From the NCBI GenBank assembly GCA_965541585.1, contig CBEUCH010000008.1, positions 64,001-128,000 of the forward strand: a stretch of 64,000 nucleotides of DNA, given 5' to 3'. A program made the translations under genes and the position numbers. The notes under the pieces are model-generated. The model did not search any database. It was not told the DNA's origin and saw nothing but the letters and a program-made list of their open reading frames with translations. The DNA comes from an uncultured bacterium (GTDB lineage Bacteria > Zixibacteria > MSB-5A5 > UBA10806). This document shows, in pieces, positions 9,162 to 27,836 of the stretch (its first letter is position 1; each line of letters starts with the position of its first letter).

Positions 9162-9190
9162 TTGCACAAAAGTGCATTATGTGATAATAT
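9162..9190 (+). promoter_or_regulatory. Sigma70-like promoter overlapped by a palindromic LexA-type box TGCAC-AAAA-GTGCA (9163-9176)
   Basis: TTGCAC-N17-TAATAT. The perfect 5-4-5 palindrome over the -35 matches the TGCNC-N4-GTGCA LexA site described for Fibrobacter succinogenes and precedes a DNA-repair helicase. Confidence 0.65.
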
Positions 9191-9221
9191 GACATTTGAG
9201 AGGGTAGCGCGAGAAAAGGTT

Positions 9222-11495
9222 ATGCAATTAATACAGGTTTTAGATAAGATCAAAACGGCCAGGGAGTTCGGTCCCAATATATGTCACTGGCATATATCGC
9301 CGCCGGGCGATGGCAAATTTGCTGATTTTCCCGAGACTGTCGATACGAAATTAGCCAATGTCTTAAAATCTATAGGTATCAATAAACTTTACAGCCACCA
9401 GGCAGAGGCTTTCGAGACCGCGTCTCAAGGCAAGAATTTTGTGGTCGTCACACCGACAGCATCGGGTAAGTCACTCTGCTATAATCTTTCCGTCATGAAT
9501 CATCTCCTGACCAAGGATCCAGAGGCCCGGGCTCTGTATATTTTCCCCACCAAGGCACTGTCTGCGGATCAGGTTGATGAGCTTTACTCCATGGTCGAGG
9601 CCTGCGGCGCTGACATCAAGACCTACACCTTCGATGGAGATACTCCGCAATCGGCCAGGGCGGCAATCAGAAGGGCCGGTAATATCGTAGTCACCAATCC
9701 TGATATGCTGCATTCCGGGATTCTGCCCCACCACACCATCTGGGTAAAGCTGTTTGAGAATCTGAAGTATGTGGTCATCGATGAGTTGCATCACTACCGG
9801 GGCGTTTTTGGATCGCATCTGGCCAATGTTCTCCGACGTCTCCAGCGCCTCTGCGAGTTTTACGGCTCGAAACCACAATACATACTCTGCTCGGCAACGA
9901 TCGGCAATCCCCGGGAGCTGGCAGAGAAAGTGACCGGCCGGTCAGTCGACTTGATAGATAATAACGGTGCGCCGACGGGGGAGAAACATTTTATATTTTA
10001 CAATCCACCTGTGGTGAATCGCCAGCTTGGCATCCGGAAATCATCGGTGAACGAGGCGGCTCGCATCGCAGGCATGTTCATAGGAAATAACATCCAGACC
10101 ATCACATTCGCGCGCAGCCGGGTCAGGGTGGAGATTCTGACAACCTACCTCAAAGACCAGCTTGCCATCCAGAAGGTGCCTCCCGAAAAGGTTCAGGGAT
10201 ACAGGGGAGGCTACCTACCCAATGAGAGAAGGGCGATTGAGAAGGGGCTTCGTTCGGGCGAGATTCTCGGCGTAGTCTCCACGAACGCCCTGGAGCTTGG
10301 TATCGATATCGGCGGCCTCGATGTCTCAGTGATGTGCGGCTATCCGGGTGGGATAGCCTCCGCCTGGCAGCAGGCTGGGCGGGCGGGGCGCAAGACCGAT
10401 CTCTCGGTGGCCATCATGGTGGCATCATCATCGCCGCTGGATCAGTTCATCGTCAACCACCCCGAGTATTTCTTCGGTAAATCTCCGGAGGAGGGAATCA
10501 TCGATCCGGATAACCTCTCGATTCTCGTCAGCCATCTCAAATGCGCGGTGTTCGAACTGCCGGTTGAGCAGACCGAATCGTTCGGCGCCGCACCGACCAG
10601 CAGGGTCTTGGATTTCCTGGCCAAAGAGAGGCTGGTCAAAAAATCGCAGGATAAATACCATTACACGTCCGACATATATCCGGCCACGGAGGTTTCACTG
10701 CGCTCGGCGTCTGCCGAAAATTTCGTCATCATGGATGAATCCGACGGCGGCCGGGCTGTAGGGGAGGTCGATTATTTTTCAGCGCCGGAAATTGTTCACC
10801 CTGAAGCCATATACCTGCACGGCAGCCGCCAGTACCAGGTTCGTGATCTCGACTGGGACGGCAGACGCGCTTATGTTATTCCGGTGGAGGTGGAATATTA
10901 CACCGACGCTGAATCCAAGGTCACCATCAAGGTACTGCATACTGACCAGGAGGAGGCGATCCGGGAGGGAATAAAAATGGCCCTCGGCGATCTATCGGTG
11001 AGCCGGGTGGTGGTGGGATATAAGAAGGTCAGGTTCCATACGCATGAGAACCTGGGCTGGGGTAATGTTCATCTGCCGGAACAGGAGATGCATACCGGCG
11101 GTTTCTGGGTATCGTTTCCCGATGATATAAGCGAAACGCTGAATCTGACTAAGGAGAAATTAGGCGGCGCTATGCAGGGGGCGGCGCATCTTCTAAGGCA
11201 GATCGTCCCGATATGGATTTTGTCCGATCCGGGGGATATCAGGTCGGTGCCCATGGTCAGGTCGCCGTTTACGGAACAGCCCACTATTTATATTTGCGAA
11301 TCGATACCGGGTGGCGTGGGGTTTGCCCGACGGATATTCGATATGTTCGATGAGATCGTCAAAGGCGCGCTCTCTCTGGCCGGGGAATGCCCGTGCAAGG
11401 AGGGGTGCCCGTCGTGTGTCGGCCCTGCCATAGAGACCGGCGAGGGGGGTAAAGACGGGGCGGTGGCGCTGCTGAAGCTTTTGGCTGGCCGGTAA
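9222..11495 (+). CDS. DEAH-box helicase with C-terminal DUF1998 Zn domain (MrfA/YprA/Hrq1-like)
   Basis: TPTASGKS, DELH, SAT, STNALELGIDIG, QQAGRAGR, C-terminal GGVG...CPCKEGCPSC. Confidence 0.92.
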   Translation: MQLIQVLDKIKTAREFGPNICHWHISPPGDGKFADFPETVDTKLANVLKSIGINKLYSHQAEAFETASQGKNFVVVTPTASGKSLCYNLSVMNHLLTKDPEARALYIFPTKALSADQVDELYSMVEACGADIKTYTFDGDTPQSARAAIRRAGNIVVTNPDMLHSGILPHHTIWVKLFENLKYVVIDELHHYRGVFGSHLANVLRRLQRLCEFYGSKPQYILCSATIGNPRELAEKVTGRSVDLIDNNGAPTGEKHFIFYNPPVVNRQLGIRKSSVNEAARIAGMFIGNNIQTITFARSRVRVEILTTYLKDQLAIQKVPPEKVQGYRGGYLPNERRAIEKGLRSGEILGVVSTNALELGIDIGGLDVSVMCGYPGGIASAWQQAGRAGRKTDLSVAIMVASSSPLDQFIVNHPEYFFGKSPEEGIIDPDNLSILVSHLKCAVFELPVEQTESFGAAPTSRVLDFLAKERLVKKSQDKYHYTSDIYPATEVSLRSASAENFVIMDESDGGRAVGEVDYFSAPEIVHPEAIYLHGSRQYQVRDLDWDGRRAYVIPVEVEYYTDAESKVTIKVLHTDQEEAIREGIKMALGDLSVSRVVVGYKKVRFHTHENLGWGNVHLPEQEMHTGGFWVSFPDDISETLNLTKEKLGGAMQGAAHLLRQIVPIWILSDPGDIRSVPMVRSPFTEQPTIYICESIPGGVGFARRIFDMFDEIVKGALSLAGECPCKEGCPSCVGPAIETGEGGKDGAVALLKLLAGR

Positions 11496-11607: not shown

Positions 11608-11650
11608 GTCGGGTTTTGCCCATGCTAAGGCGGCCTGAAACCCGACCTAC
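11608..11650 (-). repeat. GTAG-type REP hairpin
   Basis: Minus strand reads GTAG-GTCGGGTTT...AAACCCGAC. Its TAG is the stop codon of the 712-aa ORF. Confidence 0.55.
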
Positions 11651-13785
11651 GGGCTACTGTCGTCATGTTCCCGAATAAGTCTCAACGACCCAGGGCAATC
11701 CGGGCAGCTGGAGGCCTCCGACGTGCCGCGATAAGCCTCGATCTCGGTGACGACATCGTTAAGCTCCAATGCCACGCAATTACCGTTGGGGTCAGCCGTA
11801 GGCGTGAAGTTATCACCATGCGGTGGGCAAGGGCATTCGTACGGTGGAACTACCGAACCTCTGTACATGCCGATCAAAGTCACCACGTCGTCCAATTCCA
11901 GGAATGTGCCATTATGGTTGACATCACCGGCTATATATTCACAACTGCATCCCACGCCCAGGGCGCCGATAGTTTCTCCGTTTTCGCCGGCCCCGATACA
12001 GCAGGATGTCTCCTGGAGGCGATAATTATCGAATTCCATACTACAGAAATCGGGATTACAGTTGATATTTCCCTCGCCTTCCCAGCCGCCCTGGATATCG
12101 CAGTAGGTGATAGAAGGATCGTTCCCATATCCATAATTATATATTTGAGGGTCTTCCGGCGCGTAATTATCCCAGAGAATGTTATTGATATAATCGTGAT
12201 CACCATAATAGACCCAGTTAAAGATACCGCCACCCCGGGTACCGGACGTATTACCTACAATGGTATTATTTTTCACCAGGGCCGTACCATAGAAAATCGC
12301 CATAGCGGCGCCAAAGGCTTCTATATGATTATCGTAAAATAAATGTCCTTCAACCAGCAAATCGCAAAACCGGGATTCGAATCCGCCACCGTGGCCATAG
12401 AGATAATTATCATAAAATCTGTTGTTTGTGACGTTTAAAGACGAATCCCATATCCTCATACCGCCTCCGGGGCCCCGGTCTCCATTACGAATAGAAAGGC
12501 CGGTTACAGTCATATCCCCCCAGCAATATACCATTGATATGCATCTGCCCGGCACTGCACTATTGATAATGGTAGTAAAGATATCGATTTGGTTACCTGA
12601 ATCGATATGGTTTGATGCTATTACAGCGTTTTTTCCCACGATCCCGATATTCTCGTAATATGTTCCGTTATCCACGATCACCGTATCGTTATGATTTGTC
12701 AAATCAACCGCGAATTGTATGGTTCGATAGGGGTATTCATAGGATCCGTCGCCGGACTCATCGCTACCGTTGGTAGCAACGTAAATTCGATTTCCCCCGG
12801 AACAGTCGGGATGATAATCAAAATATACGCCGATATCGGAACGGCTGCCGTCGGGATCTTCTATCGATGGATCGCCCGCGTCAATACAGGGAGACGACTG
12901 ACAGATATTAAAATCATCATTCTCCAGGTCAACGAATTGCGCGTATTCGTCTATATTCCCTTCGCCCTCCCAGCCGCCTTTAATATTGCAGTAAGTTACG
13001 CTAAAGGTCGAGTTCTGGCCATAGATTTCAACATAATCTTCACTTTGCCAGAAAATACTATTCTTAATTGTGGCTTCAGTATCAAGAAGATATAATCCAA
13101 AATAATATCCATTCAAGCATACTGTATTATTGATAATTTCAGTTGACGTGCATCCTTCAAGGTAAATCAAACAAGGAATACCCCAGACAGCTCCGCAGTT
13201 GTTTCTAATCAATATATTATTCGAAATTACGGTCCCGTCATTCGAGATGCATGCAATACCGCTTCCCCCGCCTCCCATGTCAGCGGTTAAAATGTTACCT
13301 ATAATAATATTATCCTTTATTAGCATGGTCGAGCCCATTGAATAAATGCCCGCACCGTAGCCATCACCGCTGAAGTTTTCCGAAATTATATTATTGAGGA
13401 CGCGTGGATTGCTATTGGAACAATATATTCCCGCTCCGTTAACGCTCCGCCCATTTTTGATTGTAAAACCTATAAGTTCCGTAGATGAGTTCTCTCCGCT
13501 TTCAAAAGTAACCACCGACTCATATAGCCCGTCGGCATCGATGACCGTTGCCGAAATATAGCTGGTATCGTCAGTGGTAATAAACAGCGAACCTAAAACA
13601 ATATTATGCCCGTTGAAATTGATGCTCTCATAATATGTCCCCGGGTGAACGAGCACGGTGTCGCCGTTTGCGGAGGCATCTATGCCCTGCTGAATAGTCG
13701 GGTAATCATCGGGGATGTTGATGATGCTGGCCAAGGCGGGCATAGAGATGATCACCGAAAATAATATTGTATGGCGAATTATCAT
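11647..13785 (-). CDS. Secreted protein with two right-handed beta-helix (pectin-lyase-like) regions and a C-terminal dockerin-like domain
   Basis: Signal peptide; IPDDYPTIQQGIDA, GAGIY/NN repeats, SPCIDAGDP, DUF1565-like YVATNGSD..GDGS...PY.TIQ, GDVN...DPNG C-terminus. Confidence 0.8.
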   Translation of the reverse strand: MIIRHTILFSVIISMPALASIINIPDDYPTIQQGIDASANGDTVLVHPGTYYESINFNGHNIVLGSLFITTDDTSYISATVIDADGLYESVVTFESGENSSTELIGFTIKNGRSVNGAGIYCSNSNPRVLNNIISENFSGDGYGAGIYSMGSTMLIKDNIIIGNILTADMGGGGSGIACISNDGTVISNNILIRNNCGAVWGIPCLIYLEGCTSTEIINNTVCLNGYYFGLYLLDTEATIKNSIFWQSEDYVEIYGQNSTFSVTYCNIKGGWEGEGNIDEYAQFVDLENDDFNICQSSPCIDAGDPSIEDPDGSRSDIGVYFDYHPDCSGGNRIYVATNGSDESGDGSYEYPYRTIQFAVDLTNHNDTVIVDNGTYYENIGIVGKNAVIASNHIDSGNQIDIFTTIINSAVPGRCISMVYCWGDMTVTGLSIRNGDRGPGGGMRIWDSSLNVTNNRFYDNYLYGHGGGFESRFCDLLVEGHLFYDNHIEAFGAAMAIFYGTALVKNNTIVGNTSGTRGGGIFNWVYYGDHDYINNILWDNYAPEDPQIYNYGYGNDPSITYCDIQGGWEGEGNINCNPDFCSMEFDNYRLQETSCCIGAGENGETIGALGVGCSCEYIAGDVNHNGTFLELDDVVTLIGMYRGSVVPPYECPCPPHGDNFTPTADPNGNCVALELNDVVTEIEAYRGTSEASSCPDCPGSLRLIREHDDSSP

Positions 13786-14681
13786 TTCAACAACACCATC
13801 ATCCTCGTCTCGGTATACTCACCCGCCTGAATCCTGTAGAAATACATGCCGGATGAACGGTCGCTGGCATCCCACACAACCTGATGATAGCCCGCTGGCT
13901 GTTCTCCTTGAACTATCGTTTCCACCCTGCGGCCGAGGATGTCGTAGATGTTGATTATAACGTGGGATGGTTCGGGCAAAGTGTAATTAATGATAGTGGA
14001 TGCGTTGAAAGGGTTGGGCTGGTTTTGAGCCAATGAAAAATCAGAGGGAATCATGGGAATAGGATCGATACTGATCTCCGGCTCAAAGTATAGCCCGCAG
14101 TAATCCTGCTCCGGCACGACGCTTCCGCCCGGCGGAGTTTCAAAAGACCAGGTAGTTCCCTGCCCGCTATGCGGATACCAGCCTATGGAAAACGGGTAGT
14201 ATGTATCATCTATAGGAACATCAGTATTGCAGGTCATACGAAATGAGCCGTAGTAATCCCATTCCCCCTGGGTATCTAACGGATCACCCTCAGGACCGAA
14301 AACTGTATATAAAGCCGCCTGCATTTCGCAGGTGTAGCCCGGAGGAATCGGGAAATCATCGTCAGGGTTGTAGATATATGGGCCATCGACCCAAACCGAC
14401 TCCCAGTTGGGCATATCGTAGTCGGGATCAATTTCTGCGCCGTTACGTAATACAATAACAGCGTCCTCAGACATCAGGCCATGTGCAAGACCGACAATGT
14501 AAGCTGAGTTACCGGGGTCAGTTCTTACCCACATCTCAATTTCTATATCCTCTCCATTGTGCACCGTCAAAACTCCGGCATTATCCCCCTCCAGTGGCCC
14601 GAAGACGATCTTGTTGGATTGGGCGGAGGCTATAGATGCTGCAAATAACGCAAACAACGATACAAACAATACTCTATTCAT
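13782..14681 (-). CDS. Secreted protein with C-terminal FlgD-Ig/'T9SS type A'-like sorting domain
   Basis: Signal peptide; QNQPNPFN...IYDILGRRV...W....SSGMYFYRI...MVLLK tail. Confidence 0.8.
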   Translation of the reverse strand: MNRVLFVSLFALFAASIASAQSNKIVFGPLEGDNAGVLTVHNGEDIEIEMWVRTDPGNSAYIVGLAHGLMSEDAVIVLRNGAEIDPDYDMPNWESVWVDGPYIYNPDDDFPIPPGYTCEMQAALYTVFGPEGDPLDTQGEWDYYGSFRMTCNTDVPIDDTYYPFSIGWYPHSGQGTTWSFETPPGGSVVPEQDYCGLYFEPEISIDPIPMIPSDFSLAQNQPNPFNASTIINYTLPEPSHVIINIYDILGRRVETIVQGEQPAGYHQVVWDASDRSSGMYFYRIQAGEYTETRMMVLLK

Positions 14682-14699
14682 CGCATCCCCCTTAACATT

Positions 14700-16091
14700 T
14701 TATTTCAACAGAACCATTTTCTTCGTTTCAGCATATTCCCCCGCCTGTATTCTGTAGAAATACATGCCGGATGATTGATTGCTGGCATCCCAGGTGATCT
14801 GACGATAACCCGCCTGCTGATTTTCATTAATAAGCGTCTCCACCCTGCGGCCGAGGATGTCGTAGATGGTGATTATGACATCGGAGGGTTCGGGCAGGGT
14901 ATAGCGGATGAGGGTGGAAGCGTTGAAGGGGTTGGGATAGTTCTGGGATACGGAGAACCTATCAGGCGAGGGGATTTCGTCATAGTCGATTCCTACCAAG
15001 AGCGAATCACCGCCGCCATAAGCGCCCATATCGCTTCTTATGGCTCCCAGCCCCCAGGAGCAATTCAGAAGGCTGTCAAGAATATCAGGATGCCCCGCAT
15101 CGATGCAGGGAGAATCAAAAGAATCTCCGCAGGCGGTGGACATGAGATGGAAATCGCCGTTTTCAGGATCACGGAAGAGAGGGTCGGCATCGATGTTGCC
15201 CTCACCGGGCCAGCCGCCCTGGATGTTACAGTAAACAATCTCAGGCGGCAGCTCGATACGCAAGAATACCTCATCTGGCTCATTTTCATAGACAATAGAA
15301 TTTATAATAATAGAATTCGGACTCCAACAGTAAATCCCTCCGCCCTGCACAATAGAAATGTTCCGACTGATTGTATTGTTGGCAATTAGAATGTCATCAC
15401 CACATATAATCCCCGCACCTTCGGCAGCGTAATTTCCAACAATGCTATTATTAGCGATAATAACACTACCCCAGCCACATATTCCGCCACCATATCCAGA
15501 TGAATTGTTTATGATTCTATTACCTATGATTAAGCTGTTAGCACAATCGCAATAAATCCCACCCCCGAACGATACACCCCTTGCATGATTATCTCTGATG
15601 AGGTTATTCACTATTTTTGAACTTGATCCAGTGCACAAGATCCCTCCGCCTGCTGTGGTTAGACTGGATACGATATTATTCTGAATAATATTGTGTGAAA
15701 TTACAGGGCTGGATGACAAACAGATGATCCCTCCTCCGAAGGCGTAATCATAACCGTTCTGCAACGTGAATCCAGAAATAGCTGAGGTGCTATCCTCCCC
15801 GCTCTCAAAAGTAACTACTGACCCGGATTCATTACCATCGATAACCGTTTCCGCTATATACGTTGTATCCCCCGTCATTAAAAACAACGACCCCAGCACA
15901 ATATTGTGCCCGTTAAAATTGATATTCTCTACATACGTCCCCGGATGAACCAGAACGGTGTCGCCGTCATGGGAGACGTCTATGCCCTCCTGAATGGTCG
16001 GGTAATCATAGGGGATTTCGATGATGGTCGCCTGGACAGGTATATATGCAAACACAAGCAACGCTATAACGAAAATGTATGCTCTTTTCAC
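14700..16091 (-). CDS. Secreted beta-helix repeat protein with C-terminal sorting-like domain
   Basis: Signal peptide, DYPTIQEGID, GGGI repeats, SPCIDAG, QNYPNPFN...SSGMYFY tail; GGAGG SD. Confidence 0.82.
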   Translation of the reverse strand: MKRAYIFVIALLVFAYIPVQATIIEIPYDYPTIQEGIDVSHDGDTVLVHPGTYVENINFNGHNIVLGSLFLMTGDTTYIAETVIDGNESGSVVTFESGEDSTSAISGFTLQNGYDYAFGGGIICLSSSPVISHNIIQNNIVSSLTTAGGGILCTGSSSKIVNNLIRDNHARGVSFGGGIYCDCANSLIIGNRIINNSSGYGGGICGWGSVIIANNSIVGNYAAEGAGIICGDDILIANNTISRNISIVQGGGIYCWSPNSIIINSIVYENEPDEVFLRIELPPEIVYCNIQGGWPGEGNIDADPLFRDPENGDFHLMSTACGDSFDSPCIDAGHPDILDSLLNCSWGLGAIRSDMGAYGGGDSLLVGIDYDEIPSPDRFSVSQNYPNPFNASTLIRYTLPEPSDVIITIYDILGRRVETLINENQQAGYRQITWDASNQSSGMYFYRIQAGEYAETKKMVLLK

Positions 16092-16301: not shown

Positions 16302-16330
16302 TTGACACCTGCACGAATGTTCAGTATTTT
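16302..16330 (+). promoter_or_regulatory. Sigma70 promoter with a LexA-type box TGCAC-GAAT-GTTCA (16310-16323) in the spacer
   Basis: TTGACA-N17-TATTTT preceded by A-tracts. The box differs from the 9163-9176 palindrome at one arm position. Confidence 0.65.
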
Positions 16331-16438
16331 GGGGCCGGAAAGAAAGTAGAGGGAGGCTGGAACAACGCAGGCGATGGTTAACCTGTTATCATGTAACGTA
16401 TTATGATTATCGAGAATCTCAATATGAAGGGAGGCAAT

Positions 16439-16633
16439 ATGACCAGGAAAATGGAATACGACCTTTTCGCCGCACAAAAGCGATGCAATTGCGGCGGGGG
16501 TCTGATTTACGACGGACAGCTGATGGTCTGTGTCGGCTGCTACGATATTTTCTGCCCGAGCTGTTTTAACAGGGCCGTAACCGAGGGCGGATGTTTCGCC
16601 TGCGCGCTTTGCGGCTGGAGCGCATGCATATAG
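16439..16633 (+). CDS. Small Cys-rich putative zinc-finger protein
   Basis: AAGGGAGG SD before ATG 16439; CxC, CxxC, CxxC and CxxCxxC motifs in 64 aa; ends 6 nt before the helicase start. Confidence 0.7.
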   Translation: MTRKMEYDLFAAQKRCNCGGGLIYDGQLMVCVGCYDIFCPSCFNRAVTEGGCFACALCGWSACI

Positions 16634-16639
16634 GCAATT

Positions 16640-19183
16640 ATGAAGATCGAAAGGCTCCAGCGGTTCGGAATCCCGGAGCAGGTTATAAAACGGTGGTCTG
16701 CAGACGGCATACGATTCCTGCTGCCATTGCAGGCGGAATCGGTTAATCGCTATGCTCTTCTTGACGGCGAAAGCCTGATAATCAGCGGGCCGGGAACATC
16801 CGGTAAGACATTTTGCGGGGAGATGGCCACGCTGCACCAGGCGGCATCGAGAAAGAAAGCTATATTTCTAGTGCCGTTGAAGGCCATCGCGGAGGAAAAA
16901 TACCGGCTGTTTACGAAAAGATATTCGCCGCTGGGGCTTAAGATAAGGCTGGCCACAAGAGACCATGCGGAATACGGTCACGAAATCTCCAGGGCCGATT
17001 ATGATATCCTGATAACCATCTATGAGAAACTCAATTCATTGACTGCTACAGACGTCTCGATTATCAAAAACACCGGCTGTTTTATTCTCGATGAGTTTCA
17101 GCTGATATCCGATCCCGGCAGAGGGCCGGAGATCGAGATCGTGATTGCCAAGATAAGAGCTTTCAATCCCGACGCCCAGCTTGTCATACTGATGGGCGGA
17201 GGGTCGTCGCCTGAGAATATCTCCCGTTGGCTGGGATTGCCGGCGCTGGAAGAAACACGCCGTCCGGTGGATCTTCGGCTGGGAGTTTTACACAGAGGCA
17301 CCTTTCATTTTCGCGGTTTTAACGATCTGACCGAGGGCGATGAGCGCTGGCTGGAGGAGAGGCAGATCGATTACGACGGTCCCCTCGATGACCAGGGTGC
17401 GGCGGCCATCGAGATTCTCGCCGGGCGAGAAGAGCAGATAATCATTTTCACATCGACAAGGAAGAAGGCGACCGGGTTGGCATCGTATCTTGCCGAACGG
17501 TTGGATCTTCCGGCAGCCCGGGAATCCTTAAAGGGGATATCGGAACTGGCGCCATCCGTGCAGAATGAGCGTCTGGCGGAATGCCTGCGGAACGGTGTTG
17601 CGTTTCATCATGCCGAACTCAATAGCGAGCAAAGGCAGTTGGTCGAGGACGGGTTTCGCCGGGGGGAGATCAGGATTCTGTCGTCGACAACAACATTGGC
17701 CTCGGGCGTGAATCTTCCGGCAAAAAATGTGTTTGTAGAGACCATGAAATACGACGGTATCCGATCATCGAACTGCAGGGAAGCGCTGGTTCCGATTTCG
17801 GGAGTCGATTTTCAGCAGGCGGCGGGGCGCGCCGGACGGTTGGGAGTGGGGGATAAGTTCGGCCGGGCGGTGATGATTGCGGCTACTCCATATGAACATG
17901 AAGTTCTCTGGAATCAATATGTCTATGCCCAAAATGAGGATACGAAGTCCGGCCTGGCGAGAAGGCAGATGCCCGATCTGGCAATGCGCCTTATAGCCTC
18001 CGGTATAGCCTTTTCCTCAGATGAGGTAGTCTGCTCCATGGGAAATCTATTCGGGGTCTTCTGTTTGAACGAGAATAGCGGCATCTCAAATTCTGTGGGA
18101 TCCGCGATGGCTTATCTCGAAAAAGGGGGGCTTATTCAATTCGAGAAGGCGGGCAGTATCGTGCCAACCTCGCTGGGAATCATCGCTTGCTCGACAGGAT
18201 TCTCAGTGGGATCGATTATCAGGATCAATGAGACGCTCGATAGATGTATAATAAAAGAACCGTTAGAGTGGCTCTATTTCGCTTTCGGCCTGAGCGAATG
18301 GTCGAAGACAGGTGGATTTTATAATCCGAGAGGCGCATCAGATACTGTTTTGCTTCATCAGATCGATGAGTTAACCGAGGAGTTGTCTGTTCGGTCAGAG
18401 TATATTGCATCGCAGGTGAAATCTTATAAAGAGCGGTCGGTTGTGCGATCGTTATCATCGTTTCTGTTCGCGCTGGAGTGGGTCGCCGGCAGGCCGACTC
18501 GTGAAATGGAGATCGCCTTTAACAAGGGCAGCGGAGGACTCAAACGCGACGCACGGACATTATCCTGGATTCTGACAGCAATCGAAAAGGTCATTCGCAG
18601 TGAGGAATCGGCGTCCGAATCATATAATATGGTCGCCGGTGAACTGAATCAACTTGCTGCCAGAATGAGACATGGTGTCATCGCAGCGATGTTGCCTCTG
18701 GCGAGGATTCTCGATATCGACAGAGAATTTGTTCAGCGGCTTTATAACATGGGGATCAGGTCGGTGGATGATTTTCACGATATCGATTATTCGGTTCTAA
18801 AGGAGATGTTACCGCTAACCGTTGTTGAGAAAATCCAGAATCGTCTCAAGAACTATAATCAGCGAATATCATCGCCGGATAAGCTGACTCCCTCTCAGAA
18901 AAGGAGTGAAGTTTTATTCACCGGCAAAAACAGAAAGCTCTTGAGGGAAATAAATATCTGCGGCAAATCAATATTCTTACAGGCGAAATTATATTCTTAT
19001 ATGCAAAAACTCTGGTGGGGGAATCTGTCGGAAAATCCCTGGATACACAAAGAGAGCCTCGAACCGGGGATCAACCAGGCGAAATATGTAAGCAAGCTTA
19101 GAAGAATATTGAAAGAAAGCGGTATAAAGATAGAGATAGTTTCCAACGGCCGCGGATATTATCGCTTGGTTCTACATAGCTGA
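16640..19183 (+). CDS. Ski2/Hel308-like SF2 helicase with C-terminal OmpR-like winged-helix domain
   Basis: GPGTSGKT, VPLKAIAEEK, TIYEK, DEFQ, RPVDL, GVAFHHA, TTTLASGVNLPA, QAAGRAGR; C-terminal YVSKLRRIL...IVSNGRGYYRL. Confidence 0.85.
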   Translation: MKIERLQRFGIPEQVIKRWSADGIRFLLPLQAESVNRYALLDGESLIISGPGTSGKTFCGEMATLHQAASRKKAIFLVPLKAIAEEKYRLFTKRYSPLGLKIRLATRDHAEYGHEISRADYDILITIYEKLNSLTATDVSIIKNTGCFILDEFQLISDPGRGPEIEIVIAKIRAFNPDAQLVILMGGGSSPENISRWLGLPALEETRRPVDLRLGVLHRGTFHFRGFNDLTEGDERWLEERQIDYDGPLDDQGAAAIEILAGREEQIIIFTSTRKKATGLASYLAERLDLPAARESLKGISELAPSVQNERLAECLRNGVAFHHAELNSEQRQLVEDGFRRGEIRILSSTTTLASGVNLPAKNVFVETMKYDGIRSSNCREALVPISGVDFQQAAGRAGRLGVGDKFGRAVMIAATPYEHEVLWNQYVYAQNEDTKSGLARRQMPDLAMRLIASGIAFSSDEVVCSMGNLFGVFCLNENSGISNSVGSAMAYLEKGGLIQFEKAGSIVPTSLGIIACSTGFSVGSIIRINETLDRCIIKEPLEWLYFAFGLSEWSKTGGFYNPRGASDTVLLHQIDELTEELSVRSEYIASQVKSYKERSVVRSLSSFLFALEWVAGRPTREMEIAFNKGSGGLKRDARTLSWILTAIEKVIRSEESASESYNMVAGELNQLAARMRHGVIAAMLPLARILDIDREFVQRLYNMGIRSVDDFHDIDYSVLKEMLPLTVVEKIQNRLKNYNQRISSPDKLTPSQKRSEVLFTGKNRKLLREINICGKSIFLQAKLYSYMQKLWWGNLSENPWIHKESLEPGINQAKYVSKLRRILKESGIKIEIVSNGRGYYRLVLHS

Positions 19184-19290
19184 GTCTATAGTCCCATTGC
19201 AATTCGCCGGTTTCCATGTCGGGAGCACAGATTTTCTATCCTTCAGGATGGAAGCTGCAGCGATATCCTGAGTGTATAACCTGTCCAACC

Positions 19291-19304
19291 TGCATTTGTT
19301 TTGC
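19291..19304 (+). promoter_or_regulatory. Conserved upstream motif TGCATTTGTTTTGC (copy 1, portal operon)
   Basis: 13/14 identical to 22938-22951; both copies are followed by CCAAT and ATAATTGAAA. Confidence 0.5.
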
Positions 19305-19362
19305 TAAAGTCTTTTCCAATGGATAATTGAAATCAGCGAAAGCACCGCGCAAAGGAGCTCCG

Positions 19363-20649
19363 ATGTTCGGATTGCCGTTTCTAAAAAAAAGGGAAAATAG
19401 AAAGAAAAGCCCTCGCGCCGACCTGGCCCAGCGAGCGAAGATCATCAAGCCTCGCCGTCCCCGGCATAAGGCGGGAGCATCATTGAAGGATGACTATGCC
19501 CGGATCAGCTTCCCGGCCGATTACGGCTATTATGAGAGAATCACACTGTATCGATTCCTGCGGGAGCAGATTCCGGTGGTCAATGGCGCCATTTGGATCT
19601 GGGTACGCCTCTGCTCCAGCCCCATGGAATTTCACCCGTCCGCCAGCGACCGGGAGGCGGATATTACAAGACTGAATTCGGCCGTAGATGATCTCAACCT
19701 GCGCCTGGCGCCGAATCCCTATTATAAATCGGGCGGGCTGGAACGGCTCTCCGATCTTTTCTTCAGTTCATTATTTGTCGATGGGGCCTTTGCAGGCAAT
19801 ATCGAGGTCGGCAGCGACGGCCGGCTGATCGGCTTTTTGCCGGTCGACGTGCGAAAATTGACGTTCGAATACGACGATGGCTGGAAGATTTATCATGAAT
19901 CAGATGAGGGCAAGAGGCTCTTGGATCCGGCCAACTTCATCTATATACCGCTGGACGATGACTCCATCGATCCGCGCGGAAAAAGCATCCTCCAGTCCAT
20001 AGGCTTCGTCAGCCGTCTGGAACAGAAGCTTCTGGATGATATGCAGAAATCACAGGAGAAGGCGGGATATAACAGGCTTCACGTCCTGATCAACAAACCG
20101 GAACGCCGGATGGGCGAATCGGAGAACGATTTTCACGATCGCGCCAACAGCTATTTCGATGATACGGTTGGCCTTTTCTCCGGCATAAAGCCCTCGGATT
20201 CGGTAGTGACCTGGGATGATATCGAAATCAAGACTGTGGCGCCGTCTGGAGGGGCAACAGCGGCAACCCACTCGTGGTACCTGGCGCACCGGGCCGTTGT
20301 GGAGGATGTTTGCGCCGGCGTTCATCTCGATCCCTTTATGTTGGGATATTCATACGGCAGCACCAGGAGCTGGGCGCAATTCAAATTCGAACTGGTTTTA
20401 AGGCAGGTGATTTCCGTCCAGAAGCTGGCGGTTCGATTCTTCGAGTGGCTCGTTAATACGCATCTCACCCTGTCAGGAGTAAACCTGAAAGCCTCCGTCA
20501 ATTTCAATAACGACAGGATAGACGGCGCTCTCGAGAGATACCAATCGGAACATGAGGAGGCTCGCCGCGTGCTGGAATTATACGAGGCCGGATTGTTTTC
20601 CAAGGAGGAGGCCCGCTCCCGCGTTTTCCGAATCGAGGGGGATAATTGA
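19363..20649 (+). CDS. Phage portal-like protein
   Basis: Size and position next to the terminase; portal-like segments (IPVVNGAI, LPVDVRKL, DPRGKSILQS, VCAGVHLDPFMLG); AAGGAG SD before ATG 19363. Confidence 0.75.
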   Translation: MFGLPFLKKRENRKKSPRADLAQRAKIIKPRRPRHKAGASLKDDYARISFPADYGYYERITLYRFLREQIPVVNGAIWIWVRLCSSPMEFHPSASDREADITRLNSAVDDLNLRLAPNPYYKSGGLERLSDLFFSSLFVDGAFAGNIEVGSDGRLIGFLPVDVRKLTFEYDDGWKIYHESDEGKRLLDPANFIYIPLDDDSIDPRGKSILQSIGFVSRLEQKLLDDMQKSQEKAGYNRLHVLINKPERRMGESENDFHDRANSYFDDTVGLFSGIKPSDSVVTWDDIEIKTVAPSGGATAATHSWYLAHRAVVEDVCAGVHLDPFMLGYSYGSTRSWAQFKFELVLRQVISVQKLAVRFFEWLVNTHLTLSGVNLKASVNFNNDRIDGALERYQSEHEEARRVLELYEAGLFSKEEARSRVFRIEGDN

Positions 20650-20650
20650 T

Positions 20651-21136
20651 ATGGCCGGTGCCGACTGCACAATCTGCGAATCGCCGTTGCGAACAGAGAT
20701 CGAGAGCAAAGATACCGCCTGGAAGGCCGACAGGACCATTCAGTGGGCAAGAAAGCATGGCGTGCGAATAAGCAGGTTTTCACTGGCCAGGCATCGCACT
20801 AACCATTTAAATTCGACGAGAATTAGCGCAAAGAAAAAACCTCCGGATAAAATCGTCGAACCTCAGGCCAAAACGAAGCAAATAAAAAGTGATGCCTCCA
20901 TTAGCCCGAATCCCGTATCGGATCTGGAATTTCTCAATGCGGTACGCGACAGGGTTTATGAAAAATTAAAAGAAGGCGAATTCGACCTGAAGATCGAATC
21001 GGCGTTCAAGGCTATCGAGATTAAGAATAAGATATCCGACGAGTCTCAAAACGAAAAACTTCTATTAGAAATTCTGGCGGAGATCCGGACCGAGGAACTC
21101 GGCCGCCTCAAGCAGAGCCGGAGAGCTGCAATCTGA
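20651..21136 (+). CDS. Putative terminase small subunit (CxxC-HTH-HxxxH protein)
   Basis: CTICESP...ISRFSLARHRTNH zinc/HTH N-terminus and helical C-terminus, directly upstream of TerL. Confidence 0.55.
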   Translation: MAGADCTICESPLRTEIESKDTAWKADRTIQWARKHGVRISRFSLARHRTNHLNSTRISAKKKPPDKIVEPQAKTKQIKSDASISPNPVSDLEFLNAVRDRVYEKLKEGEFDLKIESAFKAIEIKNKISDESQNEKLLLEILAEIRTEELGRLKQSRRAAI

Positions 21137-21197
21137 TTCTATTTCGCAGTTCGGGTATCGATCATATCGATTTAATATCTTTTTTGTAACAGAGCCT

Positions 21198-22538
21198 ATG
21201 GTAAAAAGAGATCCGCTCGAATCCGGGCGAAGCTGGCGAAAAGCGGTAACGGACCCGGTCTATTTTGCCCGCGCTTTTCTGGATTTGAATCCTCATCCGG
21301 GACAGGCCAGGTGGCTTGAGAATTCGACGGGCTCGGAAAACGCGCTGGTAACGGGCAACCGCTGGGGTAAATCGCAAATACAGGCCGTTAAGCTTTTGCA
21401 TCGTGCCGTCTTTCAAATCAGGCCGATCGATCGCGATATCGACCGTTACTACCGTTGCGCTAACGTCTCCATCACCCAGGATCAGGCAAGCATAGTCTTT
21501 GCGAAGATGCTGGATCTGATAAACAGATCCGAGCCGCTGACTGCTCTTGTGAAAAATATCAGGCAGACTCCTTTCCCTCACATAGTCTTCAAAAACGGCT
21601 CGGAGATCTGGGCACGATCGACGCAGAACAGGGGGGAGTATATCCTGGGGCATGATTTCGACTATATCAATTTCGACGAAGCGGCCTATGAGCCGTTCGG
21701 GGATTGGGTAGTGGACGGCGTGATCAAGCTACGGTTGGCCGACAGGGATGGGACATTAGATCTTTCCTCGACGCCAAACGGTTTGAACTGGTTTTACAAG
21801 CGATGTGAACTCATCAAAAAGCAAATGCGCGGATTTGTGATGCGCGGCTCGACATTTGAAAATCCTCACCTGGCGAAGAATTATCTGGAGGATCTAAAAC
21901 GAGGTTTAACCGAGTCGAGGGTAGCACAGCATCTTCATGGCCGTTTCACCTCGTTCGAGGGGCGCCTTTTCCCGGACGATGTTATCAATCGCTGTTTAAT
22001 ATGCGATGCTCCCTCGTTGCGGGCGCCGAATCCGAAAGGTTTCTATATCCATGGATGGGATCTGGCCCGCAAGGTGACGTACACAGTGGGCATAACAATC
22101 GACGCCGGCTCACGTCCATTCAGGGTGATCGAAATAGCGCGGATGCAGAGGAAATGGCCGGTAACGATTAGTTCTATTAAGGAAAGGCATCGGAAATATG
22201 GCGGCGTAACGATTATCGATTCCACCGGTCTCGGGGATGTCGTCCTGGCGGAGTTGAACGATATCGGTGCGGTCGGCTTCAATTTCGGCGGCGGAAATCG
22301 TGATTTACTGCTGGCCAATCTCGAGCGGGCCATTTACGCCGGAGATGTCGTCTGGCCCCATATCGACCTGCCGGATGACGGAGGCTCGACCTGGAGTCTG
22401 ACAGATGAAATCAGAGCTATGGATAAATTATATAAGAACGTCGGTGATGGCGTTTGCGCGCTCGCGCTGGCGTTGTGGCAGGTCAGAGAACGTTCGGCCG
22501 AATCCCCGTTTTTGAAATCATCGGTTGGCAGGTTTTGA
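21198..22538 (+). CDS. Terminase large subunit
   Basis: Walker A TGNRWGKS, Walker B YINFDEAA, coupling motif SSTPNG, RNase H-like nuclease acidic motifs GWD, IIDSTG, GDGVCALALA. Confidence 0.92.
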   Translation: MVKRDPLESGRSWRKAVTDPVYFARAFLDLNPHPGQARWLENSTGSENALVTGNRWGKSQIQAVKLLHRAVFQIRPIDRDIDRYYRCANVSITQDQASIVFAKMLDLINRSEPLTALVKNIRQTPFPHIVFKNGSEIWARSTQNRGEYILGHDFDYINFDEAAYEPFGDWVVDGVIKLRLADRDGTLDLSSTPNGLNWFYKRCELIKKQMRGFVMRGSTFENPHLAKNYLEDLKRGLTESRVAQHLHGRFTSFEGRLFPDDVINRCLICDAPSLRAPNPKGFYIHGWDLARKVTYTVGITIDAGSRPFRVIEIARMQRKWPVTISSIKERHRKYGGVTIIDSTGLGDVVLAELNDIGAVGFNFGGGNRDLLLANLERAIYAGDVVWPHIDLPDDGGSTWSLTDEIRAMDKLYKNVGDGVCALALALWQVRERSAESPFLKSSVGRF

Positions 22539-22584
22539 CCGGGGGATTTCTTTTTCCAGATACTATAAACATCTTTTCCTAAAT

Positions 22585-22712
22585 AAGAGGAAGGCCGGCC
22601 TCAAGGAGGGAGGGAAAGACCGGCCTCTTTCGGCTAGCCCTTGCGGGCTTGCCATCGGACTGGCGCGACATTCGGCCATACGGTCGTCCGTATGGACGCC
22701 GTCAGGAGGAAG
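22585..22712 (-). ncRNA. Candidate structured small RNA (three hairpins, GNRA loop, CU-rich loop)
   Basis: Minus strand: CCATACGG-ACGA-CCGTATGG; GGCAAGCCC-GCAA-GGGCTAGCC; AGGCCGGTCT-(TTCCCTCCCTCCTTG)-AGGCCGGCCT. A G-U pair and the GCAA loop work only on the minus strand. Confidence 0.5.
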
Positions 22713-22736
22713 AAATTACGCTCAATTTATTTAAAA

Positions 22737-22750
22737 AGAACGCCTGTGCA
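22737..22750 (-). promoter_or_regulatory. Third LexA-type box candidate (minus strand TGCAC-AGGC-GTTCT)
   Basis: Arms match the 16310-16323 box at 9/10 positions; lies in the TerL-protease intergenic region just upstream of the RNA candidate. Confidence 0.4.
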
Positions 22751-22937
22751 TGTTATACGAGTGCAATAAATATGCCGCCGGGACCGAGTATAAACTGCCT
22801 CTGCAAAAACCGGAAAGCCAGTATCTTATAAGGCTTGTTCAACGTCTGAGCACCCCGCCCGATGTGAAATGCTCTGCAGTGTTTCCTATTTTCGGTAGCT
22901 CTCTGCATAGGGACAGGTTGCTGAAATTCGTTCAAAA

Positions 22938-22951
22938 TGCATTTGATTTGC
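22938..22951 (+). promoter_or_regulatory. Conserved upstream motif TGCATTTGATTTGC (copy 2, head operon)
   Basis: 13/14 identical to 19291-19304; followed by CCAATAATTGAAA and the GAGGAGG SD. Confidence 0.5.
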
Positions 22952-22982
22952 GATAGCTCCAATAATTGAAAGAGGAGGAGAT

Positions 22983-23789
22983 TTGGAAGGACTAAGAGAA
23001 ATACTGATAGGAAACCTCTCGGTAAGCCATCCCGACGAACGAATTGACTTTCTGGTGGGTCAAATCAATAAGAATATCAATCCCCCTCGAAAAGCGATGC
23101 TGGATAATGTCAATATCAGGGTCATGTATCTGTTAAATGATCTGGTTAATTCGCATGGCGGACGATTCGGGCAGGCCGATCTGGCAAGCCTTGGCAAATT
23201 AATTGTCGACACCCCGGTTTTGATCGGCCACGACAGGTCATCGGCGCCACTGGCCAGAAATTTCCATACAGAACTGGAGCGCAAGGAAGAAACGCTCTGG
23301 CTAAAAAGCTATTTCTATTGGCCAAAATCAAATGACGGTGAGTCCGATCAATTGCTGGAAAAGATCGACTCCGGAATTCTCAAGGAATGCTCCATATCAT
23401 TTGTTTATACCACGCCGGAGTGTTCTGACTGTGGTCAGGACATCAGGAGTTGCCCTCATGAAGCGAACGGCAAAAACGGTACGCACTTTATCTATAAAGG
23501 CATAACCCAGGTGCTGGAAACCTCGCTGGTCTCAAAAGGATCTGTAAAAGGGACTTACGTAACGGATAAATTGTCAGCTCACTCAGTCAGGAGTGTAACC
23601 ATCGGCGGAGACGGCTATATAATGGAACTGCCGGTTGCGGATAGCATGATTCATCAACAGGGAGCGGCAGTGTTATCCATAGAATCGCATGGGTGCCCGA
23701 CGCCCGAAATTATCGCTCATTCACCCGATATTATTGCTGCGCTGGCAATAAAAAATGATCGAGTCCATCTTCTGGTCAAATCAGCCTGA
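22983..23789 (+). CDS. Prohead (capsid maturation) protease-like protein
   Basis: PVLIGHD (His), GILKECSISF (Ser), CSDCG..IRSCPH insert and ETSLV match HK97/assemblin-type proteases; strong SD before the TTG. Confidence 0.75.
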   Translation: MEGLREILIGNLSVSHPDERIDFLVGQINKNINPPRKAMLDNVNIRVMYLLNDLVNSHGGRFGQADLASLGKLIVDTPVLIGHDRSSAPLARNFHTELERKEETLWLKSYFYWPKSNDGESDQLLEKIDSGILKECSISFVYTTPECSDCGQDIRSCPHEANGKNGTHFIYKGITQVLETSLVSKGSVKGTYVTDKLSAHSVRSVTIGGDGYIMELPVADSMIHQQGAAVLSIESHGCPTPEIIAHSPDIIAALAIKNDRVHLLVKSA

Positions 23790-24101
23790 ATGGAAATGAT
23801 TAGAATGAATCCCAGGGAATCGCTAATAAGATTCTTAATCACATTTGCAGTGACTATCGCTGCCGCCATATCAGGATATTTTGCGGCTTACACCGGATTG
23901 AGGGTGGAACTGGCCGGAAAGGCAGAAGAGCGTTATGTCTCGGCAATGGATATCAGGCTCTCCCGGCTGGAAGCGGTTATAAATGAAAGGTTCGCCACTA
24001 AAGAGGACCTGTCTGAATTTAAAGGAGAGGTTATCAGCAAGCTTATCGCCATTGAAGCCTTTTTATCAAATCAAAATTGGCCCCCCGAAACAAATATGTA
24101 A
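23790..24101 (+). CDS. Small single-TM plus coiled-coil protein (holin/XhlA-like possible)
   Basis: Hydrophobic N-terminal helix (FLITFAVTIAAAISGYFAAY) followed by a FATKEDL coiled-coil segment. Confidence 0.55.
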   Translation: MEMIRMNPRESLIRFLITFAVTIAAAISGYFAAYTGLRVELAGKAEERYVSAMDIRLSRLEAVINERFATKEDLSEFKGEVISKLIAIEAFLSNQNWPPETNM

Positions 24102-24134
24102 TTGCAGGAAATCCAGCATCTGCGAGGAGGAACG

Positions 24135-24380
24135 TTGGAAATAGATAAGACCATTGAGAAGATCAAGAATATAAAATCTGCTCTCGACACCGCCTTCGAC
24201 GAAGGAAGGATTGACCTGGATCGGATTTCAGCCGGCCTTGAATCCGCGGTTGCCGATCTGAAAGCCATTAGCGGCCGGCAAAAGGGGAAAGATCACAGGT
24301 CCGGGATTCAACGAGAGATCAGTCCCCTGGTCAACTGCCCCGAACGCAGACCGTCTCTTCTGGTCGAGGATTACCGCTGA
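24135..24380 (+). CDS. Short helical protein (possible scaffold)
   Basis: GAGGAGG SD before TTG 24135; heptad-like helices; lies between protease and decoration/capsid genes. Confidence 0.5.
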   Translation: MEIDKTIEKIKNIKSALDTAFDEGRIDLDRISAGLESAVADLKAISGRQKGKDHRSGIQREISPLVNCPERRPSLLVEDYR

Positions 24381-24434
24381 ATATGAACCTGAAATAAAAA
24401 ATGATTTGAAGATAAAAATCAAAAAGGAGAATCG

Positions 24435-24857
24435 ATGAGTGTAAGAGAACAAAACTTGCAGACCGTTGGCTTTATGACGGCCACGTTCAAAATCCATCAG
24501 ACCGCCAGCGAGGATGATTTAAAAGACGCGGATATCGGCAAGGCGGTCGCCATGACGGGCAATTACGAGGTCGGTCCTGGTTCCGATGGCGATGTGTTGA
24601 TCGGTAAACTGATACATCTATCGTTGACCGATGCAGACGTCGGGAAGAGGGTGGCTACCGTCCAGATCGGCGGAATCTGCACGCTGGCCGCGGCCGCCAC
24701 GGTGCCGTCCGTAGGAGATCGTGTAGTGGTTGACGGTAGCGGCGCAGTGAGACAGGCCCCGGCGCTGGCAACCGATGACCCGGCCGGGGGGAACGTGGCG
24801 CGCGGAACTGTCATCGATGTCAACGGCACCTCGGAAGTAACATTAATTCTTGGATAA
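24435..24857 (+). CDS. Capsid decoration/cement-like protein
   Basis: Gly/Ala/Val-rich beta protein (GKAV, VATVQIGG, VGDRVVVDGSG) immediately before the capsid gene; AAGGAG SD. Confidence 0.65.
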   Translation: MSVREQNLQTVGFMTATFKIHQTASEDDLKDADIGKAVAMTGNYEVGPGSDGDVLIGKLIHLSLTDADVGKRVATVQIGGICTLAAAATVPSVGDRVVVDGSGAVRQAPALATDDPAGGNVARGTVIDVNGTSEVTLILG

Positions 24858-24876
24858 GAATCAACAGGGAGAAAAG

Positions 24877-25986
24877 ATGGAAATAGAAAAATTGATGTCA
24901 TCAGATCTCGAAAGCTCGCTTGTGGATGCGATCGAGAACGAGAAGGGCTCGACCGGATCAGTCGATTTCGCAAAGGCCCGGAAGATAGACGTTGACCGCG
25001 ATACATATCTCGAAGCGCAGGCCAAGGGAATGTCTCTAACCGAACTGCTGGAGCAGACGGAATACGATCCGAGTCCCTCCGGTTCATTACTGGATGCTTT
25101 CGAGAGACAACTGGCGTTGAAGGGAATTCGTACTGGGGGCAAAAGTCCGGTAACGGTTGAGATGTTCTATCGAGGCGCACCGGCCCTTATGCCGGAATTC
25201 ATGCAGAGGGAGATCCTGCGGGGGATGAATATGCGTCCCGAACTGGCGAAACTGCTGGCCTCCAGCTCCGGCGTATCCACGTCACGCTACTCACCCATAA
25301 ATATTGACCACTCCGCCACCGATCCCGAAATGTCGCTACGGCCGGTAGGCGAGGGCGCCGTGATACCATCCGTCAATGTCACCGAGCAAAACAACACCAT
25401 AACGATTCCGGATTATGGTCTGACCCTGAAGGTAACCTACAAAGCTCTACGACACCGGAGTATGGCGCAGTTTAAAGTGTTGCTATGGTATATAGGATAT
25501 CGTCTGCAATCGGATAAAGTCGCTCTGGTCGTGGATACAATCATCAACGGCGATGGCAATTCTAATCCGGCGACGGTAATAAACACCGATATTACCAGCA
25601 CTCTCGATTACGACGATCTCATTAAATTCTGGAACGAATTCTATCCTTACCAGCCGAACGTTCTGATCTGCCATAAAGATAAAGTCAGATCGATACTGAC
25701 CCTGGCGGAATTCAAAGATCCCCTGGTCGGCTTCAGTTTCCAGACCAATGGGGAAATTACATCGCCCCTGGGCGCAACGTTGATACGCTGTGATGAAGTC
25801 CCCGCCGATTACGTCATCGGCCTCGATAACCGTTTTGCAATTGAAGAGGTGATCGGCCAGCCCCTGATGGTGGAATACGATAAAATCATCGAGCAGAAGA
25901 TCGAGGAGGCTGTGATATCCGAATCGGTGGCGTACGCAAAAGTCGTGAAGGAATCATCGCTGATACTCGATTCCGAGTGGACTTAA
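24877..25986 (+). CDS. Major capsid protein (HK97-fold)
   Basis: ~369 aa; VGEGAVIP, YGLTLKVTYKAL, IINGDGN segments typical of HK97-like capsids; follows protease and decoration genes. Confidence 0.82.
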   Translation: MEIEKLMSSDLESSLVDAIENEKGSTGSVDFAKARKIDVDRDTYLEAQAKGMSLTELLEQTEYDPSPSGSLLDAFERQLALKGIRTGGKSPVTVEMFYRGAPALMPEFMQREILRGMNMRPELAKLLASSSGVSTSRYSPINIDHSATDPEMSLRPVGEGAVIPSVNVTEQNNTITIPDYGLTLKVTYKALRHRSMAQFKVLLWYIGYRLQSDKVALVVDTIINGDGNSNPATVINTDITSTLDYDDLIKFWNEFYPYQPNVLICHKDKVRSILTLAEFKDPLVGFSFQTNGEITSPLGATLIRCDEVPADYVIGLDNRFAIEEVIGQPLMVEYDKIIEQKIEEAVISESVAYAKVVKESSLILDSEWT

Positions 25987-26008
25987 TCCTCGGTTATCCG
26001 GATTTAAC

Positions 26009-27454: not shown

Positions 27455-27464
27455 GGGAGAGATC

Positions 27465-27836
27465 ATGAACGTTACTCTGGACTACCTGAAATCTAACCGT
27501 AAATGGTTTATCCGCGATTATCGTGTCTGGGGCGATGACGGCGCCCTCGAAGCCGATATGCTGATGACGGAAACAACGCCCTCAACGTCGAGAATAGTCT
27601 TCCTGCATCAGTTCTCCGGTGGCAACGGACAGGTTGTGGATTTTGCGGATCTTCTGGATCATCGCGGCAATAAACTGCCGCTGACCATAAACAATGCAGA
27701 AGTTATTATCATCCCGAAGAATGCGGTCGCCGCCTTCGTTCCTGGCACGGTCGGCCCGACATCTTTTCGAATTGCCAAATCTAATCGGCAACTTGCGGAT
27801 GCAGTCGTCGACCTTTTGATAATGGAGATGAGCTGA
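27465..27836 (+). CDS. Hypothetical protein of the capsid cluster
   Basis: GGGGAG SD; TGATG coupling to the next gene. Confidence 0.7.
   Translation: MNVTLDYLKSNRKWFIRDYRVWGDDGALEADMLMTETTPSTSRIVFLHQFSGGNGQVVDFADLLDHRGNKLPLTINNAEVIIIPKNAVAAFVPGTVGPTSFRIAKSNRQLADAVVDLLIMEMS

Follow-up and report, generated by a model that had tools for sequence, protein, structure and literature searches.

A predicted LexA-controlled helicase operon neighbouring an inherited capsid cluster in Zixibacteria

Genes and promoters at the locus

A promoter of consensus type lies on the plus strand at 16302-16330 of the window, which here means the whole 64,000-nt stretch of DNA analysed. Its -35 hexamer TTGACA (16302-16307) and -10 hexamer TATTTT (16325-16330) were read in the sequence and recovered by a consensus promoter scan, with 10 of 12 matches and a 17-nt spacer. 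TTGACA is followed by CC, by TGCACGAATGTTCA at 16310-16323, by a single G and by TATTTT, just as the original prediction had described. The box fills the 17-nt spacer and overlaps the core promoter. Together with a conserved GTAT extension, TGCAC-GAAT-GTTCA makes up a predicted LexA operator at 16310-16327 (+), recognised by its PWM score and by its conservation upstream of helicase orthologues. The pattern TGMAC-N4-GTKCA was matched twice in the window against 0.16 matches expected, a count reached by 1 of 100 shuffles, and TGCAC-N4-GTGCA had a single occurrence across the whole 3.52 Mb genome.

This promoter had been taken for the first one of a capsid cluster. The promoter elements are present, but the genes that directly follow them encode a Zn-ribbon protein and a helicase; the capsid genes come later. 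The small Cys-rich, Zn-ribbon-like ORF (16403-16633, +) is the first gene of the operon and encodes 64-76 aa, its likely start being ATG 16439 after GGAGG rather than 16403. It is conserved beside the helicase in relatives, as found by tblastn, and had no match in Pfam, PHROG or NCBIfam. Immediately upstream of the promoter, three beta-helix/DUF1565 genes with T9SS C-terminal sorting domains occupy 11647-16091 on the minus strand; this family has many paralogues in the genome, and its members also occupy the gap between helicase and portal genes in two relatives (G002 and G003).

The second gene of the operon (16640-19183, +) encodes an 847-aa Hel308/Ski2-like DNA helicase, matching NF002654 over residues 1-747 (E 2.4e-109). 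Its best PHROG match was phrog_6819, a phage helicase family (E 2.9e-67). The protein scored below the equivalog cut-offs of both NF002654 (366.7 versus 887 bits) and NF040935 (234.4 versus 1200 bits), and because its architecture is collinear while its score falls under the cut-off, it is called Hel308-like and not an equivalog. The last ~90 residues (~756-847), conserved in relatives, make up an OmpR/PhoB-type winged helix. The AF2 model of this domain (pLDDT 87.6) comprised a sheet, three helices and a C-terminal hairpin. VIA alignment gave a Z of 10.8 to the DNA-binding domain of SaeR, with an rmsd of 2.5 Å over 84 residues, and Z values of 10.8-8 to SaeR, AdeR, VanR, PhoP, PhoB and OmpR over ~84 residues at 2.2-2.8 Å. 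The Foldseek E value was only 0.035, and Trans_reg_C was not among the Pfam matches listed for residues 700-847 even at E up to 10. Judged from the model, the helicase C-terminus is an OmpR/PhoB winged-helix fold that is invisible to Pfam.

Downstream, positions 19327-28660 hold the portal, terminase, a protease-like gene, a decoration protein, the major capsid protein, a BNR-repeat protein and others. The portal gene (19327-20649, +; phrog_3753, E 1.2e-25) is the first of this capsid cluster; its listed start is TTG at 19327, and ATG 19363 is the likelier one. The major capsid protein is encoded at 24850-25986 (+; phrog_3922, E 1.1e-64).

A second predicted LexA operator, TGCACAAAAGTGCA at 9163-9176 (+), belongs to an unlinked gene. 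It overlaps the -35 element TTGCAC (9162-9167), which is separated by 17 nt from TAATAT (9185-9190). The gene (9162-11495, +; likely start ATG 9222) encodes an MrfA/YprA-type helicase with a DEAD/Helicase_C core (PF00270, PF00271), WHD_HRQ1 (PF22982) and the MrfA Zn-binding domain MZB (PF09369, E 1.6e-18). The palindrome reported over the -35 of this helicase is thus present, and nine of ten relatives from the family and all three from the order keep it (scores 18.5-22.0). It was found in none of 10 class-level relatives (best score 11.9), nor in the one short-contig row.

The LexA-type motif in the genome and its relatives

The genome contains one recA and one lexA (C1:311184-311810), the latter scoring 216.1 bits with TIGR00498, whose cut-off is 110.95. 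The LexA translation is canonical, with a VAAG cleavage region and the GDSM serine, as expected of a LexA that has a cleavage site and a Ser/Lys dyad. The promoters of lexA (C1:311087) and recA (C6:181898) have TG[A/C]AC-N4-GAACA-GTAT in or over them: the lexA promoter reads TTGACG-AT-TGAACAAATGAACA-GTAT and the recA promoter TTGCACATCTGAACA-GTAT, both sharing their 18-nt frame with the 16310 site.

Upstream regions of lexA and recA were gathered across 40 relatives, giving 60 regions in all. Among 30 lexA loci, 23 have the element between TTGAC(A/G) and the -10; of the seven without it, one has only 83 nt of upstream sequence. Its form at lexA ranges from TGAAC-N4-G..CA in the order of the source genome up to a perfect TGCAC-N4-GTGCA in other families. 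A conserved (G)CAG was also seen ~7-9 nt after the -10 of lexA promoters in two families (for example L001 and L003-L019), and may be a transcription start mark or a further element. For recA, the element was present in 12 of 13 loci of the source genome's family, as the variant TGAAC-N4-GTT(A/T)T in four order-level genomes and as a perfect TGAACATATGTTCA in the more distant G031, and no box was found upstream of recA in most class-level relatives. De novo EM on the 60 regions, given no prior input, returned C-A-W-W-T-G-N-N-C-A-G-T-A-T. Motif discovery at lexA and recA, which had been proposed as a check, recovered the same element as that of the 16310 site.

An 18-nt matrix was built from 23 unique lexA/recA sites, with the capsid and MrfA sites absent from the training set, and used to scan 7,041,200 genome positions. 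Only 8 positions scored at least 15.9. Ranks 1 and 2 were lexA (27.15) and recA (26.35), both represented in the training set. Rank 3 (C12:72350, minus strand, 25.36) directly follows TTGACG, in a promoter with the TTGACG-N2-box layout, and precedes by 45 nt a 405-aa ORF labelled as a DinB-like Y-family polymerase by eye from its N-terminal sequence rather than by family search. The 16310 site (+) was rank 4, at 20.78. Ranks 5-7, with scores of 18.8-19.96, fall within coding sequence and probably arose by chance, and rank 8 (15.92) is the site in the promoter of the MrfA-type helicase. One of the coding matches, C22:19598 (minus strand, 18.8), was treated as chance since it falls inside an 829-aa ORF and has no -35; the N-terminal region of that ORF resembles a phage baseplate or contractile-injection-system protein. 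In the source genome's family the right half of the lexA/recA boxes is imperfect (GAACA), and part of what the matrix captures is therefore promoter context such as GTAT.

The layout TTGAC(A/G)-N2-box at 16302 recurs in the lexA and dinB-like promoters. A TG[C/A]AC-N4-G..CA-GTAT element stands in the same place in these two, in the recA promoter and at the 16310 site. The attribution of the box to a LexA regulon, part of the original prediction, is borne out by this shared motif and -35/-10 position and by its rank in the scan. Promoter function could account for the GTAT extension and for the AT-rich spacer, and on that reading the palindrome might belong to another regulator or be merely conserved promoter-spacer sequence. 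This is highly improbable: a gene set in which lexA and recA are joined by a Y-family polymerase and two repair helicases is the signature of an SOS regulon controlled by LexA, and the dyad is perfect (TGCAC-N4-GTGCA or TGAAC-N4-GTTCA) in several relatives. From the identity, rank and conservation of the motif we infer LexA binding and repression, and the 16310 site is very probably a LexA operator.

The helicase operon and the capsid cluster among relatives

Helicase orthologues were found in 39 of 41 genomes. Thirty helicase loci were retrieved, 28 with usable upstream sequence, and TTGACA-N2-box-GTAT was located upstream of the helicase in 27 of them (scores 12.7-27.7), at 35-1096 nt from the start of the helicase match; the sole exception was a truncated gene (G013). 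All eight further genomes from other Zixibacteria families also had the box (scores 22.0-27.7). Across the phylum, the helicase C-terminal domain was found in 148 of 151 genomes sampled. The box is therefore likely to be the operator of an SOS helicase operon that occurs throughout the phylum, and not of the capsid cluster.

Of 41 relatives, 39 had the portal and 37 the major capsid protein, and the identity of the latter fell with phylogeny from 93% to 56%. In sequence records the phylum bears the name Candidatus Zixiibacteriota. The capsid protein was matched in 145 of the 151 phylum genomes, once per genome in all but one, and the cluster is syntenic and single-copy across the phylum, with a divergence that tracks host phylogeny. 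Domestication of the cluster, for which the original prediction had used the box as an argument, is well supported by this pattern of vertical inheritance in the compared genomes; the box itself does not support it, being not conserved with the capsid genes. Distant capsid homologues (30-34% identity) were also noted in Oscillospiraceae MAGs. A literature search on a Zixibacteria capsid system found nothing related.

No LexA box was found within 1.5 kb upstream of the portal at any of 30 loci, comprising 29 relatives and the source genome (best score 7.9). Among 42 Zixibacteria loci (636,612 nt), no box scoring at least 14 was found upstream of or within capsid genes; the only four boxes at this score all lay beyond the last capsid gene found, at distances of over 3 kb from it. 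Seven unlinked class-level clusters, scanned over ~10 kb upstream each, had no box of at least 12 in promoter position and two weak intragenic matches. The box is thus not kept at orthologous capsid clusters, and the notion of a capsid cluster wired to LexA finds little support: the box stays with the helicase (27 of 28 and 8 of 8 loci) and was found neither in the portal upstreams (0 of 30) nor upstream of or within the capsid genes of the 42 loci.

A direct wiring was weighed as well, in which the boxed promoter would be the first of the capsid cluster, LexA would repress particle formation, damage would induce it, and the arrangement would have been selected in a domesticated element. In the source genome, helicase and portal lie on the same strand, 143 nt apart to the listed TTG or 180 nt to the likelier ATG 19363. 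No terminator was detected in the spacer (19184-19326, +) by a hairpin scan, and its fold z-score was 0.58. The order of helicase then portal on one strand, which is that of the order to which the source genome belongs, recurs in G002, G003, G008, G010, G017 and G023. In all six of these order-level relatives, however, the interval measures 2.7-5.5 kb and is interrupted by at least two opposite-strand genes, so the spacer is uniquely short in the source genome. One of the opposite-strand genes, convergent with the helicase, encodes 362-377 aa and has no close homologue in the source genome (best match 27% identical). The spacer was compared by blastn with those of G002 and G001, both of the same genus as the source; G001 has non-helicase sequence upstream of the portal and lacks the junction. 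Because the intervals of relatives hold other genes, the direct juxtaposition is particular to this assembly, and an exact 40-nt search of metagenome_contigs with the junction returned no match, so that it is known from this assembly alone.

Gene order in other families also argues against direct wiring. The boxed helicase operon is downstream of the capsid genes on the same strand in G042, convergent with them in G050, G049 and G141, and divergent from them in G052, G061, G094 and G165, where the box is 282 nt from a protease-module gene; in some other-family genomes the helicase is unlinked to capsid genes and yet keeps its box. With the absence of boxes at portal and capsid loci, and with a conserved motif of the portal's own described below, direct wiring is quite improbable. 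Since no terminator was found in the spacer, read-through is possible in the source genome, although such an arrangement is not conserved; a rise of portal transcripts on LexA derepression is conceivable for this strain but doubtful.

When portal upstreams from 13 family genomes were aligned, an AAAC-N-GTYCA-N4-GCATTTGTTTT block stood out as conserved, ~45-90 nt ahead of the start. The 3.52 Mb source genome has exactly two copies of GTNCA-N4-GCATTTG, both of them before capsid modules: GTCCA-ACCT-GCATTTG at 19283-19298 (+) upstream of the portal, which is kept in family relatives, and GTTCA-AAAT-GCATTTG at 22930-22945 (+) upstream of the 268-aa protease-like gene (22983). The extended form is GTYCA-N4-GCATTTG(T/A)TTT, with copies 50-80 nt before the first gene of a module. 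Paired, near-identical copies precede both modules in G008, G004 and G009, and in the latter two genomes the pair is kept although a rearrangement has moved the modules apart. A search at 35 loci for 18-mers common to the portal and protease-module upstreams gave clear results in some genomes only, and the motif is claimed for the source genome's family only. A sigma-54 reading of it was rejected by eye, the block spacing being ~3 nt too short. The Bacteroidota-type -7 element has the consensus TAnnTTTG and fits the motif only in part. Judged by position and conservation, GTYCA-N4-GCATTTG is the likeliest seat of the capsid cluster's own regulation.

Helicase and capsid genes shared a contig in 33 genomes, lying at most 35 kb apart in 25 of them, which belong to 8 families; in the other 8 the distance exceeded 180 kb. 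The tally was made by hand, and short contigs bias it toward close pairs. This neighbourhood may leave room for a functional link, in which wiring would be indirect: a product of the LexA-controlled operon would activate or service the capsid system, so that particles would appear upon DNA damage. Such a product might bind GTYCA-N4-GCATTTG or process DNA for packaging. The helicase does end in an OmpR/PhoB-type DNA-binding fold (Z 10.8) and has a phage helicase family as its best PHROG match, the 25 close pairs occur in varied orientations, and both capsid modules share a private motif. Against this, five genomes (G044, G056, G115, G159 and G160) have the full helicase C-terminal domain and no capsid protein match, and G027 has a partial match only. 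Three others (G053, G132 and G136) show the reverse, a capsid match without the helicase domain, MAG incompleteness being applicable to these counts. In one family (f9), helicase and capsid genes are far apart or on different contigs, and winged helices in repair helicases can serve DNA handling alone. With the helicase domain in 148 and the capsid protein in 145 of 151 genomes, both are near-universal and their few absences do not coincide, so co-occurrence gives no support for dependence. An indirect wiring of this kind is therefore considered unlikely, as is its particular form in which the winged helix of the helicase, perhaps with the Zn-ribbon protein, switches on the capsid modules or feeds them DNA.

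Proposed control and comparison with known systems

Taken together, the sequence comparisons are probably best explained by a LexA-run helicase operon to which the capsid cluster is a mere neighbour. Host LexA would sit on the 16310-16327 operator in the spacer of a sigma-70-type promoter and block RNA polymerase until its RecA-stimulated self-cleavage after DNA damage. The unit so controlled would be an old Zixibacteria SOS operon of the Zn-ribbon protein and the winged-helix Hel308-like helicase, within a small LexA regulon that would otherwise comprise lexA, recA, the dinB-like gene and the MrfA-type helicase. The capsid cluster would be a neighbour and not a target of this promoter. A local loss of the intervening opposite-strand genes would have placed the portal 143-180 nt behind the helicase in the source genome, where damage-induced read-through into the capsid genes would be possible as a strain-specific effect, while the capsid modules would retain their own shared upstream motif.

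This analysis outlines by computation, for the first time, an SOS regulon for the uncultured phylum Zixibacteria. Its predicted members are lexA, recA and a dinB-like gene, along with two helicases, one of MrfA type and one that is Hel308-like and fused to a transcription-factor-type winged helix. The analysis also corrects a tempting inference, in that the capsid cluster inherited in this phylum has no LexA box of its own, and it gives the search for capsid regulation a concrete target, the private motif before both modules. The repeated neighbourhood of helicase and capsid genes is a testable lead as to how DNA damage might be tied to particle production; if true, the cascade would amount to two-step SOS control of a phylum-wide domesticated virus-like particle.

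The LexA operator of Fibrobacter succinogenes is TGCNC-N4-GTGCA, and the Gram-positive LexA box is GAAC-N4-GTTC. The Zixibacteria box shares with these a 14-bp dyad with a 4-nt spacer, half-sites in which TGCAC/GTGCA alternate with TGAAC/GTTCA, and a position overlapping the promoters of lexA and recA and that of a Y-family polymerase gene. It differs in its conserved 3' GTAT extension and AT-rich spacer, in the degenerate right half-sites of the lexA/recA boxes in the source genome's family, and in a predicted regulon that includes winged-helix Hel308-like and MrfA-type helicases. The F. succinogenes LexA is named in passages of PMC3091678 that do not give its motif. The helicase itself resembles archaeal Hel308 and bacterial Ski2-like proteins in its collinear match over residues 1-747, including domain 4 (PF21280), and differs from them in the extra C-terminal OmpR-type winged helix, the predicted LexA control and the Zn-ribbon partner.

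Direct use of host LexA is known from phages such as CTXphi and from coliphage 186 with its tum gene. It is also described for GIL01 with gp7 (PMC4551915). As in those phages, a predicted LexA box occupies a promoter beside phage-derived genes, and transcription might conceivably run on into head genes in this single genome. In contrast to them, the boxed promoter in Zixibacteria would drive a helicase operon, the structural genes are without boxes in all relatives examined, and the element is a vertically inherited cluster rather than a temperate phage. An SOS/LexA influence on the gene transfer agents of Alphaproteobacteria is described, among others, for the network of Dinoroseobacter shibae (PMC6473078). 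In those systems the link runs through global regulators, whereas for the Zixibacteria capsid genes only a neighbourhood with a predicted LexA-controlled operon was seen. What the two have in common is a domesticated capsid system, the production of which may be linked to DNA-damage signalling.
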